Below, in pieces: positions 2,888-23,718 of a stretch of 64,000 nt of DNA; position 1 is the first letter of the stretch, and each line of letters starts with the position of its first letter. The stretch covers positions 12,726 through 76,725 of the forward strand of contig DNVW01000016.1 of the NCBI GenBank assembly GCA_003507395.1, written 5' to 3'. The position numbers and the translations under genes are program-made. The DNA comes from Clostridiales bacterium (GTDB lineage: Bacteria; Bacillota; Clostridia; TANB77; CAG-508). The notes under the pieces are model-generated. The model was not told the origin of the DNA. It ran no database searches and saw nothing but the letters and a program-made list of their open reading frames with translations.

Positions 2888-3358
2888 TTATTCAATTATA
2901 CCGCAAGCAATTTTGCTTCCAGAATTGCCACTGGGTTGAGTTGTAAAATCATCTGGAGAATCATGAATAATAACAACTTTACCTAATATATCTTTTATTT
3001 TAAATTTATTTATTAAAACAGTCATATGTGCATAACCATTATTTTCAATTAGTGGTGGTAAATCCCCAATATGAAAAGGGTGAGGACAGTTTGTAGGATT
3101 TAAATGTGTTTTTGCATTTGCAAATTCGTCGCTTATAGTTCCACTACAAGAACTGCCTTCATGAATATGAAATCCAAAAAATCTACCGGTACAGCTGTCA
3201 GATGATTGAGGTAATCCATTTACTTTAGCAGTAACCAAGACACCATTTTTCACTTCTCTAAAAGTAACAACACCATTTATTTTAGGATATTTTTTTCCTC
3301 CCTTTATATTTGCTTTAGCAATATTAAAAATATTTGTAAACATATTATACATCTCCAA
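2888..3358 (-). CDS. sodC: Cu/Zn superoxide dismutase
   Basis: GFHIHEGSSC, the Cu/Zn ligand histidines and PHPFHIGDLPPL are typical of SodC. Confidence 0.85.
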   Translation of the reverse strand: MEMYNMFTNIFNIAKANIKGGKKYPKINGVVTFREVKNGVLVTAKVNGLPQSSDSCTGRFFGFHIHEGSSCSGTISDEFANAKTHLNPTNCPHPFHIGDLPPLIENNGYAHMTVLINKFKIKDILGKVVIIHDSPDDFTTQPSGNSGSKIACGIIE

Positions 3359-12778: not shown

Positions 12779-12796
12779 AGAATCTGTTTTATCAGT

Positions 12797-12840
12797 AGGG
12801 ACGGAGATTTTGACAATCCAGCGTGATAGTCAAAATTCCT
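12797..12840. repeat. Member of the GGGACGG(G/A)GA(A)TTTTG(G/A)CA repeat family, with a hairpin (attttgac ... gtcaaaat)
   Basis: agggacggagattttgacaa resembles the motif at 23628, 29753 and 57221. It lies immediately 3' of a gene. Confidence 0.45.
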
Positions 12841-12955
12841 ATCTATACTGAAAAAAGTTGCAAAAACTGCCAAAAGGCTGGACTTTTTAACGGTTTTGTG
12901 GTATAATTATAGTATAAGTGGGTTAAGATAAAATTATGTTTTGGAGGTACCTAAA

Positions 12956-13123
12956 ATGTTTAATGAAGAAGTTTTTAAATTTGATATAGATAATATAAAA
13001 AATGATTTAGCAATAGAAGGAATGGAAATAACAAATGAAGATGTAGACATGTACAGAAGATTTGCAAATGATGAATTAAATATGCCAGAATTAATAGAAA
13101 TAATAAAAAATCAAAGTTTATAA
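12956..13123 (+). CDS. VbhA-like antitoxin of a Fic toxin (inhibitory-helix family)
   Basis: NDLAIEGMEITNEDVDMYRRFANDELNMPELIEII resembles the VbhA xxxEG inhibitory motif plus the RY..GE..EL tail. The RBS is ggagg. Confidence 0.5.
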   Translation: MFNEEVFKFDIDNIKNDLAIEGMEITNEDVDMYRRFANDELNMPELIEIIKNQSL

Positions 13124-13140
13124 ATTTAAAATCACACAAA

Positions 13141-13171
13141 AAACTGCCAATAAATAAAAAGGCAGTTTTTG
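13141..13171 (+). terminator. Terminator (aaactgcc ... ggcagttt followed by a T-run)
   Basis: An inverted repeat followed by a T-run. Confidence 0.5.
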
Positions 13172-13278
13172 TTCTTAAATATAAAAAAATCGACTTTTGA
13201 AGAGTATCTGAAACGACGTATCTGATATAATAAGTTCTAGATAGAAGTTTAGATTGCACTAGAAGGTCTGTCCCCAGA

Positions 13279-13293
13279 GTGACAAAATGTCAC
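13279..13293. promoter_or_regulatory. Perfect 15-bp palindrome GTGACAaaaTGTCAC upstream of the Fic ATG. Candidate operator.
   Basis: Seen directly in the sequence. It is flanked by related CTGTCCCCA / CGTCCCCAAAGTGACAG motifs. Confidence 0.4.
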
Positions 13294-13332
13294 AAAAAGG
13301 AACGTCCCCAAAGTGACAGAAAGGAAAAAAGT

Positions 13333-13944
13333 ATGAGAGATATTTATGAGGTTTCACATTCTGTATATTGTTATCCTAATACAGAAGTATTAATAAATAA
13401 ATTAAATATTAAAGATATTAAAAAATTGCAAATTTATGAGGCTAAAATAACGGCAGCAAAATCTTTAGGATTAAGAAAAAAAGGAATAACAGGAGATTTT
13501 GATGTAAAACATATTAAGCAAATTCATAAATATTTATTTGAAGATATATATCCATTTGCTGGAGAATTTAGAACAGAAAATATAGCAAAAGGGGAATTTA
13601 GATTTGCACAAAGTGAATATATAGAGCCAGAATTAGAAAATCTATTAAATAAATTAAAAAAGGAAAATTATTTAGAAGGTTTAGATAAAAAAGAGTTAGC
13701 AATTAAATTAGCCTACTATTTAGCAGAACTAAACGTATTACATCCATTCAGAGAGGGAAATGGAAGAACAAACAGAGAATTTATAAGACAATTAGCATTA
13801 AAAAATGGCTATCAGTTAGACTTAAAAAAAGCCAAAGCAGAGGAAATATTAGAAGCGAGCATAGAATCAATAGTAGACACAAAAAAATTAGAAGAAATAA
13901 TCTATGAATGCCTACAATTAGGGACTGCTCCAAATTGTCCTTAG
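13333..13944 (+). CDS. Fic/Doc family protein (AMPylase-type toxin)
   Basis: Canonical Fic motif HPFREGNGRTNREF. The ATG at 13333 has an aggaaaaaag RBS. The longer track ORF from 13279 starts at GTG inside a palindrome and is unlikely. Confidence 0.8.
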   Translation: MRDIYEVSHSVYCYPNTEVLINKLNIKDIKKLQIYEAKITAAKSLGLRKKGITGDFDVKHIKQIHKYLFEDIYPFAGEFRTENIAKGEFRFAQSEYIEPELENLLNKLKKENYLEGLDKKELAIKLAYYLAELNVLHPFREGNGRTNREFIRQLALKNGYQLDLKKAKAEEILEASIESIVDTKKLEEIIYECLQLGTAPNCP

Positions 13945-13956
13945 TGACAATTTGGG

Positions 13957-13971
13957 CTGTCCCTAATTGGG
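13957..13971. repeat. CTGTCCCTAATTGGG palindromic motif (left boundary of the Rpn cassette)
   Basis: CCCTAATTGGG is a near-perfect palindrome. Related copies lie at 15089-15141. Confidence 0.5.
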
Positions 13972-14793
13972 AATATTTTCTATTTCTTGCATGGTTAATC
14001 CTGTTGCTTTAGCTATTGTTTCTTTGCTTATTTTTAACTCTAACATTTTCTTTGCAACCTCTAGTTTACCTTTTTCCAGTCCTTTAGCGTAAATCGCTTT
14101 TTCGTCCATTATTGCTTTTAGTCGTAAATCTGCTATTCTTTGCATTCTTTCGTCTTCACTTAAACTATCAAGTTTTTCTGTTGCCTCTTTTATTTCTTTG
14201 TTTTCTCCCATCTTTTCAGTCACCCTTTCCGATTTTGGATTTTCCAAAAAATATAACCAATCTAATAGTTTATCTTTTTCCTTTTCTCTTCCCTTTATTT
14301 TTGGTAACTCTATAATATCAATTTCTAACTTATCTGTCAATATTTTACCTCCTGTTTTATTATCCATTATTTTCCATACACTATGATAATCCATTTCTTT
14401 TAAATTCTTTACTTCAAAATCTGTTATTAATATTACAATTGTTTTTTCAAGTAATGAATAATCTTCTCCTATTTTTATTTGTCTTGTATACAACCTACTC
14501 CAATAATATAGTATTCTTTCTATTATATTGCTTTGATCAATTAATTGCATTTCTATATTGCATTTTTCCTTTCCATCAAGCTCTGCTAGTATGTCTAATA
14601 CTCCTAATTTGTCGTCTTTAAATTCTCTTCTTAATATCGGGTTCTTACTTAAATCTATACTTTCTATTTTTCTTTTTAATATTGTTTCTAAAAAACCTTT
14701 TGTTATTCTTTCGTTTCCTATTTCACCAAATAATGCTTGAAATACTACATCTAATTTAGGCGATAATGTTTTTGTTTCTTTGTTTTTTTCCAT
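13963..14793 (-). CDS. Rpn/YhgA-like PD-(D/E)XK nuclease family putative transposase (Transposase_31 / TIGR01784-like)
   Basis: N-terminal LSPKLDVVFQALFGE...LDILAELDGKEKCNIEMQ is typical of this family. Confidence 0.7.
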   Translation of the reverse strand: MEKNKETKTLSPKLDVVFQALFGEIGNERITKGFLETILKRKIESIDLSKNPILRREFKDDKLGVLDILAELDGKEKCNIEMQLIDQSNIIERILYYWSRLYTRQIKIGEDYSLLEKTIVILITDFEVKNLKEMDYHSVWKIMDNKTGGKILTDKLEIDIIELPKIKGREKEKDKLLDWLYFLENPKSERVTEKMGENKEIKEATEKLDSLSEDERMQRIADLRLKAIMDEKAIYAKGLEKGKLEVAKKMLELKISKETIAKATGLTMQEIENIPN

Positions 14794-15088: not shown

Positions 15089-15141
15089 GGGCTGTCCCCA
15101 ATTGGGCAAATGGGATAATTGGGGACTGTCCCTAATTGGGG
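15089..15141. repeat. Cluster of GTCCCCAATTGGG / GTCCCTAATTGGGG palindromic motifs, including a 10-bp-stem inverted repeat (gtccccaatt ... aattggggac)
   Basis: Seen directly in the sequence. It forms the right boundary of the Rpn cassette. Confidence 0.5.
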
Positions 15142-15209
15142 CAAAAAAAAGAGGGGGCAGATGCACCCTCCAATAAAGGTTTTCTCGAAGACCCATATAT
15201 GGGAAAACA

Positions 15210-15485
15210 TTACCTTATTTGGATGAATATGATACCATCCTGCCAGCAAAGATCGATACCAAGTTCGTACAGCTCGCCGTAAAGGGTAGCATAACCCATA
15301 TAACAAAAATTATTTAACTGGTCAATCTTTTTTCCAAGGGCGGAATCGGCGCGTATGAATGTTATCCCACGTTCACGCAGCCTCAGTATCCTTTTAGCTG
15401 CCCGTTTTACCCTTCTGGCCATCCTTTCTTGATATTTTTCCATAAGTTTCTTTTCCCTTGCTTTCTTTTTTTCTTCCTTTTTCAT
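15210..15485 (-). pseudogene. GC-rich foreign gene fragment (unidentified, basic protein) with its own terminator at 15152-15180
   Basis: G+C is visibly far above the surroundings. The 91-aa ORF has no recognisable family. A minus-strand hairpin (gaggg-N10-ccctc followed by T8) lies just downstream. Confidence 0.3.
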
Positions 15486-15650
15486 AATAAGGGGTCCTTT
15501 CTTTTACTAACATCCTATTGGATATTGTACCTTTATTATACCATATACTTCACATAAAGTCAAGAATTATGTAAAATCTGTAAAAAATATTGCGTTATTT
15601 AAAAAAATGGGATATAATTAGTTATTAAATTAAGGGGATAGTGAATAAGC

Positions 15651-18599
15651 ATGCCTAATAAAGAAACTCATAGAGCATTTAACCAGTTGTTAAATACTTT
15701 TTTAGAAATTAATAATAAAGAGGAAGAATTGGCACAAGATGGTACTAGTGGTATAAAATTAGTACCTATATTTTTGTATAATGATACAGACAAAAAGCTA
15801 AAGGTAGAATTTAAAATTGGAAACGAACAATTAACTAAGATTAATAATCTTCCAGATTTTTTTGAAAGAATGCTTAATAGAGAAAAATATAAATATAACA
15901 ATGTGCTGGAGTTTATACATGAGGAAAATGCTTTTGAAGAGCAAAGTAGGCCTTTGCTAAAATTTCTATTAAAATATGCAGAAATAATTAAATATGCAAA
16001 TGATGTAAATAATAACTATGCACATTATGGAAGAAACTTTAATGTGAATAATGTTGTATTATCAAATACAGGTTTAGATGAACTATTTGAAATATTAAAA
16101 GGAAAAACAGTAGAATTTGAAACAAAAACAGGAGAAAGAAAAATTCAATTTATAGATGAGCCAATAGATATAAAATTTATACTAGAAAAATCAGATGAAA
16201 GTACATATTGTTTAACACCTAATATAGATGTGTATGGGTATGATATATTTTATGGAAAAAATTATTCTTATTTTTTGATCGATAATAAGATGCACAAATG
16301 TTTACCAAAAGTGGAAAATAGGAACCTAGAATTGCTAGAAGTGTATAAAAAAAATTATACTCAATCAATAATATTTAACGAAAATAATTTAAGAAATTTT
16401 TTTGCAATTGTTGTACCAAAAATAAAAGATAATTTTGAAATAAAAAATATAGACAAAGAACAAATAGAAAAATACATGCCTAAAGATTTGTATGTAAAAA
16501 TATATTTGGATTATAACGAAAAAGGTTATATAATAGCAGATGTTAAATTCTGTTATGGAAATGTGGAATTTAATCCAATAAAAAACGTAAATTTGGAAAT
16601 AACAAGAAACGCTATACAGGAAAATGAAGTACTTGATACATTTGTACAAACAGGTTTTATGCTTGATAGTGCAAACGCAAGATTAGTATTAGTAAATGAT
16701 GAAAAAATATATAATTTTTTATCAAAGGAAATAGAAGATTATATGAAAAAATTTGAGGTGTTGGTTGCAGAAAACTTCAAGAAAAAGGACATAAAAAAAA
16801 TAAAAATAAAATCAATAGGAGTAAAAATAGAAAACAATTTATTAGACATAAACTTGGAAGATTTTAAATTTAATATTTACGAAATAAAAGATATTATAAA
16901 TAAATATAAACTAAAAAGAAAATTTTATAAATTAAAAGATGGAACCTATATATCATTAGAAAAAAATAACAGTTTGGATTTTTTGGAAAATGTAGTAGAT
17001 AATATAGAAATAGATTATGTAAATTCAGAGGGGGGTACAATAAAACTTCCTATATACAGAGCAATGTACCTAGAAAAATTATTTAAAGAAATGAACAATA
17101 CTAATATTCAAAAAAATGAATATTATAAAAAAATGATTAGTGAAATAGAAGATAGACATATAGATATAAATACAAAAATTCCTAAAAAATTAAATACTGA
17201 ATTAAGAACATACCAAAAAATAGGCTATAAGTGGCTTAAAACATTAGAACAGTATAAAATGGGTGGCATATTAGCAGATGATATGGGCTTAGGCAAAACT
17301 GTACAAGTTTTGACAGTTATACTTTCATATATACAAGAGAATAAAGAAAAAGCGAAAAACTCAATAATAGTATGTCCAAGCTCACTAACATTAAATTGGT
17401 ATAATGAGATACAAAAATTCACACCAACAATAAAGACATTAGTGATAAGTGGAGATTATTTAGAAAGAAAAAGAAAAATAGAAACTATCAACAATTATCA
17501 AATAGTAATAACCTCATATGATTCTTTAAAAAGAGACATAGATTTATATACACAATATAATTTTAAATATATTGTAGCAGATGAAGCACAATACATAAAA
17601 AATAATAATACTAAAAATTCAAAAGCTGTAAAATTAATTAATGCAGAAACAAAATTTGCATTAACAGGTACACCTATAGAAAATTCACTTTCAGAACTAT
17701 GGTCAATATTTGATTTTATAATGCCAGGGTATTTATATAAATACAAGAAGTTTAAAGAATTATATGAAATACCTATTATAAAAAATCAAGATGAAGAAAA
17801 AATGAATAAATTAAAAAAGCAAATAGAACCATTTATTTTAAGAAGAACCAAAAGCGAAGTATTAACAGAGCTTCCGGATAAAACAGTAACAATATTAAGT
17901 AATGAGATGAAAGAGGAACAATATTCAATATATATGTCTTATATGGCACAAGCAAGAGATGAAATAATGTATCAAATAGATATGAAAGGATTTGAAAAAA
18001 GTCAAATAAAAATATTATCACTTTTAATGAGACTAAGACAAATTTGTTGCCATCCAAAATTGTTTTTAAGCGAATATACAGGTGAAAGCAGTAAATTAAA
18101 TCAATGTATAGAAATAATACAAGATGCGGTTTTGGGAGGACACAAAATTTTACTATTTTCAAGTTATACCTCTATGTTTGAAATAATAGAAGAGCAATTA
18201 AAAAAATTGGAAATTAATTATTTAAAACTAACGGGACAAACAAAAGTAGGAGAAAGAATAAAATTAGTAGATGAATTTAACACAAATAAAAACATAAAAG
18301 TATTTTTAATTTCTTTAAAAGCAGGTGGAACAGGATTAAATCTAACGGGAGCAGATATGGTAATTCATTATGACCCATGGTGGAATTTGTCAGCAGAAAA
18401 CCAAGCAACAGACAGAACTTATAGGATAGGACAAAAGAAAAATGTACAAGTATATAAATTAATTACAAAAAATTCAATAGAGGAAAAAATATATGAATTA
18501 CAGCAGAAAAAAGCAAAATTAATAGATAATATGCTATCAACAGATGCAACCTTTATAAGCAAATTATCGAAAGACGACATAATGGCATTGTTTGAATAA
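15651..18599 (+). CDS. SNF2-family helicase with a ~500-aa uncharacterised N-terminal domain
   Basis: Motifs I (LADDMGLGKTVQ), II (DEAQYIKN), LTGTPIEN and the helicase C-terminal domain (DRTYRIGQKK) are present. Confidence 0.85.
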   Translation: MPNKETHRAFNQLLNTFLEINNKEEELAQDGTSGIKLVPIFLYNDTDKKLKVEFKIGNEQLTKINNLPDFFERMLNREKYKYNNVLEFIHEENAFEEQSRPLLKFLLKYAEIIKYANDVNNNYAHYGRNFNVNNVVLSNTGLDELFEILKGKTVEFETKTGERKIQFIDEPIDIKFILEKSDESTYCLTPNIDVYGYDIFYGKNYSYFLIDNKMHKCLPKVENRNLELLEVYKKNYTQSIIFNENNLRNFFAIVVPKIKDNFEIKNIDKEQIEKYMPKDLYVKIYLDYNEKGYIIADVKFCYGNVEFNPIKNVNLEITRNAIQENEVLDTFVQTGFMLDSANARLVLVNDEKIYNFLSKEIEDYMKKFEVLVAENFKKKDIKKIKIKSIGVKIENNLLDINLEDFKFNIYEIKDIINKYKLKRKFYKLKDGTYISLEKNNSLDFLENVVDNIEIDYVNSEGGTIKLPIYRAMYLEKLFKEMNNTNIQKNEYYKKMISEIEDRHIDINTKIPKKLNTELRTYQKIGYKWLKTLEQYKMGGILADDMGLGKTVQVLTVILSYIQENKEKAKNSIIVCPSSLTLNWYNEIQKFTPTIKTLVISGDYLERKRKIETINNYQIVITSYDSLKRDIDLYTQYNFKYIVADEAQYIKNNNTKNSKAVKLINAETKFALTGTPIENSLSELWSIFDFIMPGYLYKYKKFKELYEIPIIKNQDEEKMNKLKKQIEPFILRRTKSEVLTELPDKTVTILSNEMKEEQYSIYMSYMAQARDEIMYQIDMKGFEKSQIKILSLLMRLRQICCHPKLFLSEYTGESSKLNQCIEIIQDAVLGGHKILLFSSYTSMFEIIEEQLKKLEINYLKLTGQTKVGERIKLVDEFNTNKNIKVFLISLKAGGTGLNLTGADMVIHYDPWWNLSAENQATDRTYRIGQKKNVQVYKLITKNSIEEKIYELQQKKAKLIDNMLSTDATFISKLSKDDIMALFE

Positions 18600-23620: not shown

Positions 23621-23718
23621 GTGCCAATAGGGACGGGGAATTTTGGCACAAAAAATTTTAATTTAACAAAAAGCGAGTGAAAATGAAATTTCACTCGTTC
23701 TGGCGCAGATGGGCTTAA
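23621..23718. repeat. ~97-bp att-proximal repeat A. It consists of the GTGCCAATAGGGACGGGGAATTTTGGCAC hairpin, a CGAGTGAAA-ATGAAA-TTTCACTCG hairpin, and a degenerate tRNA-Leu 3' core (tggCgcagatgg at 23701-23712).
   Basis: It is ~96 percent identical to 29747-29844. It is preceded by a 10-bp tandem duplication, gtgccaatag x2. Confidence 0.7.

Follow-up and report, generated by a model that had tools for sequence, protein, structure and literature searches.

Organization of the Fic locus

The window analysed here, a 64-kb stretch of DNA from an uncultured gut Clostridia bacterium with a G+C content of 27%, carries a two-gene module composed of a small open reading frame (ORF) followed on the same strand by a gene encoding a Fic protein. 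The pair consists of Fic enzyme and inhibitor genes of the known VbhT/VbhA kind, and the proteins themselves are ordinary. The unusual point is their arrangement, as the two genes look from their sequences like separate transcription units instead of one operon. The two genes and the hairpin lying between them are the following.

12956–13123, + strand: small gene, 55 amino acids, putative FicA/VbhA-type inhibitor (antitoxin)
13139–13176, + strand: intrinsic-terminator-like hairpin with T-run, 10-bp stem and 12-nucleotide (nt) loop, starting 15 nt past the small-gene stop
13333 (ATG)–13944 (stop), + strand: Fic gene, 203 amino acids, class I Fic AMP-transferase, FicT-like

The intergenic spacer between the small gene and the Fic gene is 209 nt in length. 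The Fic ORF was listed from a GTG codon at 13279, which represents an upstream extension in the same frame as the ATG at 13333. All of the features that a first-pass annotation had read from the letters of this region are present, to within 1–2 nt of where it had placed them. The small gene was also retrieved from 75 species-level genomes, all of which are uncultured gut Clostridia represented by metagenome-assembled genomes or CAG genomes.

The Fic protein

The Fic motif of the larger gene product is intact (HPFREGNGRTNR) and fits the signature HxFx(D/E)GNGRxxR, as the first-pass annotation had recognized. The protein exhibits homology to the Pfam Fic domain (E 3.8e-21), to the NCBIfam VbhT model over the Fic domain of that model (E 8.8e-53) and to the NCBIfam model of E. 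coli Fic (PRK10347, E 8.3e-41). A search of the PDB matched residues 5–184 to VbhT (3zcb/3shg) at E 5e-41, with other class I Fic proteins next. A regular-expression search of the 203-residue protein for [ST]xxxE[GN] identified no internal motif, which places it in class I of the published classification. The PADLOC model PDC-S04, a candidate defence family, matches the protein from end to end (E 3.1e-74, residues 1–195 against positions 9–203 of the 209 in the model).

The catalytic core HP[FY]REGNGRxxR is kept in 57/57 full-length Fic homologues from other species, 15 of which carry HPY in place of HPF. The ratio of nonsynonymous to synonymous divergence (dN/dS) against the sister species is 0.09–0.14, indicative of purifying selection, and an identical protein is listed in 54 index blocks of assemblies. 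The C-terminal tail LQLGTAPNCP is common to the sister species and absent from more distant ones. The gene product is most likely an active AMP-transferase.

The small protein is related to FicA/VbhA antitoxins

The small protein (MFNEEVFKFDIDNIKNDLAIEGMEITNEDVDMYRRFANDELNMPELIEIIKNQSL) has at least 210 homologues in the indexed database, none of which contains a Pfam domain. No source containing it provides a functional name, the description of one JGI entry being 'hypothetical protein'. When 1.84 billion representatives were searched exhaustively with a family profile, 103 clusters at 50% identity were returned, mostly from uncultured gut Clostridia. The Pfam VbhA model (PF18495) does not match the window protein; it matches 4/26 close members at E 0.072 or weaker and 4/38 remote family members with a best E of 1.1e-5.

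For the window protein, homology to VbhA is visible at the profile-profile level only. A VbhA-type mini-profile was built from VbhA and six proteins in the antitoxin position beside the nearest Bacillales plasmid Fic genes. Alignment of the window family to this profile by hhalign gives a probability of 92.1% (E 6e-7), and the extended family alignment reaches 96.7% (E 3.6e-10) across 49 gapless columns. In the alignment, the S/T of the antitoxin motif is matched by D17 and its E-G by E21-G22, with E21 opposite VbhA E24. Comparisons by hhalign with single sequences are weak (VbhA, P 1.3e-3; a Brevibacillus antitoxin, P 1.3e-2), and a word-index search with the Brevibacillus antitoxin returned the query itself as the sole match.

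The AlphaFold2 model of the protein has a mean confidence (pLDDT) of 91.5 and contains helices at residues 4–20, 27–37 and 43–52, with the DLAIEG segment at the C-terminal end of helix 1. FicA antitoxins are described in the same way, with three helices of which the first carries the motif at its C-terminal end (PMC8401265). When the model was compared by Foldseek to 350,542 PDB chains, the first three ranks were occupied by BiaA (5eu0_B, probability 0.98), BiaA (5nh2_B) and VbhA (3shg_B). On the profile alignments and the predicted fold, the 55-residue protein is assigned as a divergent FicA/VbhA-type inhibitor. The resemblance of the small ORF to VbhA that had been proposed from the letters is therefore upheld by both the extended hhalign comparison and the Foldseek ranking. 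The similarity to hidden Markov models of Fic antitoxins that such a resemblance implies is found narrowly, being absent when the single sequence or the close family is compared to Pfam, NCBIfam and the PDB, and present in the profile-profile alignments and in the 4 of 38 remote members noted above. Phage and plasmid collections contain no tblastn match to the small protein, and a phage or plasmid origin was rejected on this ground.

The putative inhibitory motif, DLAIEG, spans residues 17–22, with E21 as the putative inhibitory glutamate. NDLAIEG is invariant in a 26-sequence sample of the close family. In an alignment of 38 diverse family members E21 is the sole invariant residue, and the residue following it varies (G/N/D/K/S/H/Q). 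The aspartate at the first position of the S/TxxxEG motif, remarked upon in the first-pass annotation, is a property of the family: D occupies this position in 74/76 species-level loci, the other two reading ELEIED, and S or T occurs in none. In the alignment of 38 members this position (−4 from E21) is usually D, and the most remote members carry S or T there (for example P0161, P0208, P0215 and P0217), as in the motifs IKASLEVEGM and IKGTFAIEGM. As the most remote members carry S or T, the aspartate represents a substitution within the family, and D17 looks like an equivalent helix-capping residue in place of S/T. D would then be tolerated at position 1 of the inhibitory motif, a loosening of the rule by which Fic proteins are classified.

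Linkage and gene order across species

The small gene and the Fic gene lie on the same strand within approximately 1.1 kb of each other in 55/75 species, almost all of them within 370 nt. The arrangements observed are as follows.

Small gene then Fic, same strand: 37 species, gap −11 to 367 nt, one of 1106 nt
Fic then small gene, same strand: 18 species, gap 93–211 nt
Opposite strands: 5 species, approximately 1.1 kb apart
No Fic gene in the fetched stretch: 15 species, 5 of these with a cut flank

The species with reversed order and those with the genes on opposite strands belong to one Fic subclade (HPY..., FIREL), and their small proteins carry a matching SISDEDV.LFKQF segment. The subfamilies of the small protein and of the Fic protein co-vary, and the partners therefore co-evolve. 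The window has the antitoxin-first order, yet a terminator-like hairpin and 209 nt stand between its genes.

Approximately ten species with full flanks encode the small gene with no Fic gene within 3 kb. These loci contain either orphan antitoxins or small genes whose Fic gene is elsewhere in the genome. Small genes of this kind that keep both promoter and terminator are found in loci L027, L031, L037, L039, L041, L042, L046, L049 and L068, at about position 3001; in L027 the gene lies between an HU gene and a glutamyl/glutaminyl-tRNA synthetase gene.

Promoters, ribosome-binding sites and the intergenic hairpin

The expression signals identified upstream of the two genes are the following.

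12879–12907, + strand: small-gene promoter, −35 TGGACT, 17-nt spacer, extended −10 TGTGGTATAAT
12943–12947, + strand: strong Shine-Dalgarno sequence of the small gene, GGAGG, read from the sequence
13223–13231, + strand: candidate extended −10 for Fic, TGATATAAT, read from the sequence
13320–13325, + strand: weak ribosome-binding site of Fic, AAAGGA, read from the sequence

The small-gene promoter scores 10/12 matches in a promoter scan, with the TG of an extended −10, and is the sole exact occurrence of TTTTGTGGTATAAT in the window. Upstream of the small ORF, 75/76 species-level loci carry the sequence T[GA]TG[GA]TATAAT, whatever the gene order, with a −35 variant (TGGACT, TGTACT or TTGATT) 17 nt upstream of the −10 and usually 44–52 nt between the end of the −10 and the ATG. 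GGAGG is located within 20 nt of the small-gene start codon in 72/75 loci. The 5' untranslated region (5'UTR) of the small gene (12908–12955; approximately 50 nt) is partly conserved in L001–L097, with ATATGTAGGGTG.., an A-rich stretch and TTTGGAGG, and a short GTGGTG/CACCA hairpin can arise there in several species.

The Fic genes of relatives are preceded by a weak GGTGA or AGGA ribosome site. In loci with reversed order or a long spacer the Fic gene has a −10 of its own, such as TATGGTATAAT or TATAAAAT, and many long-spacer species have a recognizable −35/−10 between the hairpin and Fic. Within the spacer of the window, TGATATAAT is the sole plausible −10 for independent transcription of Fic, judged by its letters; two sister assemblies read TGATACAAT in its place.

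The hairpin at 13139–13170 is formed by AAAAACUGCC, a 12-nt loop and GGCAGUUUUU, and is followed by the T-run UUUUUGUUCUU. It folds at −12.1 kcal/mol (z −4.2), and 0/200 shuffles fold as well. A consensus terminator scan missed it only because loops longer than 8 nt lie outside its search. This hairpin is shared with the syntenic sister species, where the spacer is 75 nt, and substitutions within the window lineage are confined to the loop. In approximately 24/37 species with the small-then-Fic order, a non-homologous hairpin with a T-run occupies the same position. These post-stop hairpins are built from different A-tract/stem/U-tract sequences (for example AAAAGTTGTCAAAATATTGACAACTTTT, ATATAAGACC..GGTCTTATAT and GGGATATAATTTTATATCTC), and z is −2.95 to −6.1 in 19/19 of those tested. 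Of the loci with 55 nt or more downstream of the small-gene stop, nearly all have a hairpin and T-run there, and these are absent only where the genes overlap or the spacer is shorter than 30 nt. The hairpin is retained after the small gene also when Fic is upstream or absent, and for this reason it is regarded as the small gene's own 3' end signal. The terminator hairpin had been singled out as an oddity of this locus; its presence stands, and its oddity does not, as it is the usual architecture in the clade. With a stem-loop and U-tract at the 3' end of a gene, it has the features of a Rho-independent (intrinsic) terminator and is predicted to act as one.

The reading favoured here, to which we give a probability of roughly 0.7, is a FicTA-type module with a class I Fic protein whose two genes form separate expression units. 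Several observations weigh against it. The small protein on its own has no match in Pfam, NCBIfam, PADLOC or a phmmer search of the PDB, and the profile of its close family finds only chance-level matches in the PDB and misses VbhA. The top three Foldseek matches (TM approximately 0.55, E 0.12–1.7) are not significant alone, modest E-values being expected for a query of 55 residues. In the pattern (S/T)xxxE(G/N) the window protein has D17 where S/T belongs, and the loci of approximately ten species lack a neighbouring Fic gene, as described above. The hairpin has a 12-nt loop and only 4 G-C pairs, and may terminate weakly as the loop is long and G-C pairs are few. The candidate Fic promoter has no good −35, is located 100 nt from the start codon and falls in the loop of a predicted hairpin. 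In the literature, ficA-ficT pairs are described as operons (PMC5033356).

The composition of the hairpin, the failure of the consensus scan to call it and the published description of these pairs as operons would also suit an arrangement in which the hairpin is not a functional terminator but an mRNA stabilizer, a processing site or a weak pause, and ficA and ficT are co-transcribed normally. The sister species adds to this, as it has only 32 nt between the hairpin and the Fic start codon; this leaves no room for a promoter, so Fic in that species must depend on read-through. Against co-transcription are the occurrence of a hairpin and U-tract at this position in approximately 24 species with unrelated sequences, even with Fic upstream or absent, and the −35/−10 sequences between the hairpin and Fic in many long-spacer species. 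Loci with the reversed order also exist, so the two genes can be expressed independently. On balance, simple co-transcription is considered unlikely.

The orphan small genes bear on another possibility, that Fic is insulated and effectively silent in this lineage and that the small gene is the functional survivor, for example as an orphan anti-Fic immunity protein. In 10–15 species the small gene is retained, complete with promoter and terminator, and no Fic gene lies within 3 kb, and in the window the terminator, 138 extra nt and the weak ribosome site separate Fic from the strong promoter. The Fic ORF is nonetheless intact, the identical protein recurs across the 54 index blocks, dN/dS is low and the catalytic motif is unbroken in every full-length homologue, which together make a silent Fic gene highly improbable.

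Proposed mode of action

Under the favoured reading of separate expression units, the simplest scheme is a strongly and constitutively expressed inhibitor paired with a weakly expressed enzyme, an architecture suggested by the conservation of the signals described above. The inhibitor should be made constitutively and in excess, given its near-consensus promoter, its GGAGG and its own hairpin and U-tract terminator. Expression of Fic would depend entirely on transcripts that pass the hairpin and/or on a weak spacer promoter (the candidate at 13223), so that a high inhibitor-to-enzyme ratio would be set at the level of transcription. By analogy with characterized pairs, the small protein would bind Fic and wrap around Fic helix alpha-1, with E21 set against the second arginine of the Fic motif and ATP thereby bound in a non-productive orientation. 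If synthesis of the inhibitor ceased, Fic would be released and would then AMPylate a cellular target and may thereby be toxic; the targets of characterized relatives are GyrB and ParE. The complex of Fic and inhibitor may also remove AMP, as is described for Fic-1-AntF.

This last property raises the alternative that the pair is a reversible AMPylation/deAMPylation switch and not an addiction or defence toxin-antitoxin system, with the complex removing AMP through the inhibitor glutamate and the regulated small gene setting the direction. Such a switch would account for E21 as the one invariant residue of the family, for separate promoters in either gene order and for a pair that is widespread and under purifying selection across a clade of small-genome gut Clostridia. 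However, the chromosomal site differs by species and lies beside Rpn nucleases, REP-like repeats and variable inserts, and the locus has recombined between species; the varied sites and the recombination look more like a mobile toxin-antitoxin or defence gene. The match of the Fic protein to the candidate defence family PDC-S04 also counts against a switch, which is considered unlikely. A more far-reaching proposal is that the clade has rebuilt Fic/FicA as independently regulated units in which the direction of AMPylation or deAMPylation of a core target such as gyrase is set transcriptionally. This is doubtful; if true, the module would be a physiological switch, or a phage sensor fired by shut-off of the inhibitor promoter, and not a classical autoregulated type II operon.

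The extra spacer and the mosaic ancestry of the locus

The region between the hairpin and the Fic ribosome-binding site contains the following features.

13172–13309, + strand: lineage-specific extra spacer, approximately 138 nt, between the hairpin and the Fic ribosome-binding site
13270–13284 and 13304–13318, + strand: 15-nt direct repeats GTCCCCA[G/A]AGTGACA, 34 nt apart, flanking the palindrome
13279–13293: palindrome GTGACAaaaTGTCAC, between the direct repeats

The extra spacer is absent from the syntenic sister species, whose whole spacer is 75 nt, and from all 75 other species. An equivalent long spacer is present in all assemblies encoding the identical Fic protein; 24 contigs were read, and each of the 8 loci shown has a spacer of 208–209 nt. 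As RNA, the extra segment is more structured than its shuffles (z −3.2) and contains a predicted imperfect 77-nt hairpin with TGATATAAT in the loop. No other copies were found in the window or in 100 loci, and an exact-match scan of JGI metagenomes recovered the same locus only. A mobile element or miniature inverted-repeat transposable element was rejected as unsupported, with no other copies and no convincing terminal inverted repeats. A known RNA was also rejected, as no Rfam family matched at the gathering threshold and a relaxed limit of E 5 added only three matches at chance level.

The 15-bp palindrome that had been placed in front of the Fic gene is present, but it is statistically unremarkable and sits in the lineage-specific addition. 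In the window, 51 perfect palindromes of the 6+6 form with 3 nt between the arms were counted, 7 of which have at least 3 G/C per arm, and the palindrome was rejected as a significant feature because it is no rarer than chance. The direct repeats are a real repeat signal, with 2 matches to GTCCCCA[G/A]AGTGACA observed vs 0.04 expected, and they resemble the dispersed GC-rich GTCCC repeats of this genome, which are similar to repetitive extragenic palindromic (REP) elements.

Divergence from the sister species varies along the locus, as given here in nucleotide identity and synonymous divergence (dS).

Flanking genes: approximately 83% identity, dS 0.92 (neighbouring amidohydrolase gene)
Small gene and hairpin: 96% identity, dS 0.12
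5' two-thirds of Fic: 79% identity, dS 1.38
3' third of Fic: 96% identity, dS 0.10

By this nucleotide comparison the locus appears to be a recombination mosaic. With dS near 0.1, the small gene and the 3' third of Fic suggest that species have recently exchanged parts of the module. The low-divergence stretches against the sister species (L001) are 12900–13170 and 13700–13944. The extra spacer falls inside the block of divergent ancestry and may have arrived with a foreign block that also covers the 5' two-thirds of Fic. It is probably REP-like filler with a modulatory role at most.

The palindrome and the GTCCCC..GTGACA repeats could instead control Fic expression, either as the operator of a DNA-binding regulator or as a 5'UTR RNA switch. 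GTGACA occurs as three half-sites, two direct and one inverted, just upstream of the Fic ribosome site, and these do not vary among 7 assemblies of the lineage. The TGTCAC in the middle could base-pair with the half-site on either side to give alternative hairpins, and the structure of the spacer RNA beyond that of its shuffles would fit a switch. This explanation is improbable all the same, as the palindrome occurs as often as chance allows, the segment is missing from the sister and from all 75 other species while the module is kept without it, antitoxins of the FicA type lack a DNA-binding domain, the repeats are similar to the dispersed GTCCC REP-like elements and the Rfam search finds nothing.

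Relation to known systems

A close known counterpart is VbhT/VbhA of Bartonella schoenbuchensis (PDB 3shg, 3zc7 and 3zcb). VbhT has the identical HPFREGNGRT.R core, and VbhA is a three-helix partner of approximately 60 residues with an E-G ending helix 1, encoded upstream on the same strand. VbhT contains an additional C-terminal BID domain, whereas the window protein consists of the Fic domain only; VbhA reads SQRLEG where the window protein reads DLAIEG; and vbhA-vbhT form an operon, whereas the genes of the window are parted by a hairpin in the 209-nt spacer.

Similar likenesses are found with E. coli Fic/YhfG (EcFicT/EcFicA) and Pseudomonas Fic-1/AntF, in which a single-domain Fic protein of approximately 200 residues has an inhibitor of approximately 55 residues encoded directly upstream. 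PDB matches relevant to this comparison include 5jff and 8wt0. In these systems the second arginine of the motif is the residue with which the inhibitory Glu pairs. Fic-1 AMPylates GyrB, and the complex of Fic-1 and AntF removes AMP (PMC13327609). EcFicT has a degenerate Fic motif, whereas that of the window is canonical, and both pairs differ from the window in having adjacent or overlapping operons and antitoxins that keep S/T.

The closest annotated relatives of the Fic protein, at 47–57% identity, are encoded by Bacillales plasmid pairs (for example Brevibacillus pBbsI, Cytobacillus and Terribacillus). Each of these Fic genes is preceded by a small gene, which NCBI names 'antitoxin VbhA family protein' in 3/6 examined. 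The Bacillales antitoxins align without gaps to the window protein over AKA[ST]xx[IV]EG[LM]x[IV]T.E, for example AKATLEIEGMTVTKE against IKNDLAIEGMEITNE in the window. In contrast to the window, their genes overlap by 8 nt, the motif starts with S/T and the pairs are plasmid-borne; the window family was not found in plasmid or phage collections.

A likeness in regulatory logic only, and not in family membership, is exhibited by the type III system ToxIN, in which a Rho-independent terminator lies between toxI and toxN and approximately 10% read-through holds the antitoxin:toxin ratio near 10:1 (PMC7781912). Its components are unrelated, being an RNA antitoxin and an endoribonuclease toxin. The definition of PADLOC PDC-S04 is one gene without a partner, no PADLOC model exists for the small protein, and the defence role of the family is that of a candidate.

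What is new at this locus is an unannotated antitoxin subfamily of the well-known FicTA system. Beyond membership, the sequences point to a family-wide D at motif position 1 and to a clade-wide decoupled architecture. Where a tool demands (S/T)xxxE(G/N) or a match to Pfam VbhA, these Fic genes will be classed as lone toxins or as PDC-S04 single-gene candidates. A type II-like pair also appears to be split into two transcription units in tens of species, either by a terminator between the genes or by reversal of their order. If confirmed, this would be a natural protein-protein system in which termination of transcription controls the toxin-to-antitoxin ratio, a mode so far documented mainly for ToxIN.

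Neighbouring genes and repeats

The Fic gene is followed by a further repeat feature.

13915–13969, no strand: long imperfect palindrome over the Fic stop, REP-like repeats, inverted repeat I19, encoding the tail LQLGTAPNCP

This palindrome probably terminates transcription in both directions, serving Fic and the convergent Rpn gene. The latter (13963–14793, − strand) encodes an Rpn-family PD-(D/E)XK nuclease or putative transposase (Pfam PDDEXK_2, 3.5e-51; TIGR01784). It is present in only some of the syntenic relatives, which marks the region downstream of Fic as a variable hotspot. GC-rich CTGTCCCYAATTGGG repeats bracket the Rpn gene at 13957–13971, 15092–15106 and 15126–15140 (3 copies vs 0.03 expected). 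Another dispersed REP-like element, TGCCAAWAGGGACGGGGAATTTTGGCAC, folds into a hairpin whose loop contains CGTCCCC and is present in four copies at 23629, 29754, 57220 and 57301. A degenerate relative of it lies near 12797 (inverted repeat 12787–12856), between the amidohydrolase gene and the small-gene promoter.

The segment 15146–15514 is GC-richer and holds a 91-residue ORF (15210–15485, − strand) with a lysine/arginine-rich N-terminus. In metagenome contig L098, which is 98.7% identical, a different segment of 591 nt replaces it; 15146–15514 is a strain-variable insert between the Rpn gene and a SNF2-family helicase gene. The helicase (15651–18599, + strand, 982 amino acids) has a SNF2_assoc N-terminus and matches the PADLOC models DpdE (1.5e-155) and ZorD (6e-128). 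As the gene is syntenic in all close relatives, its function may be housekeeping and not defence.

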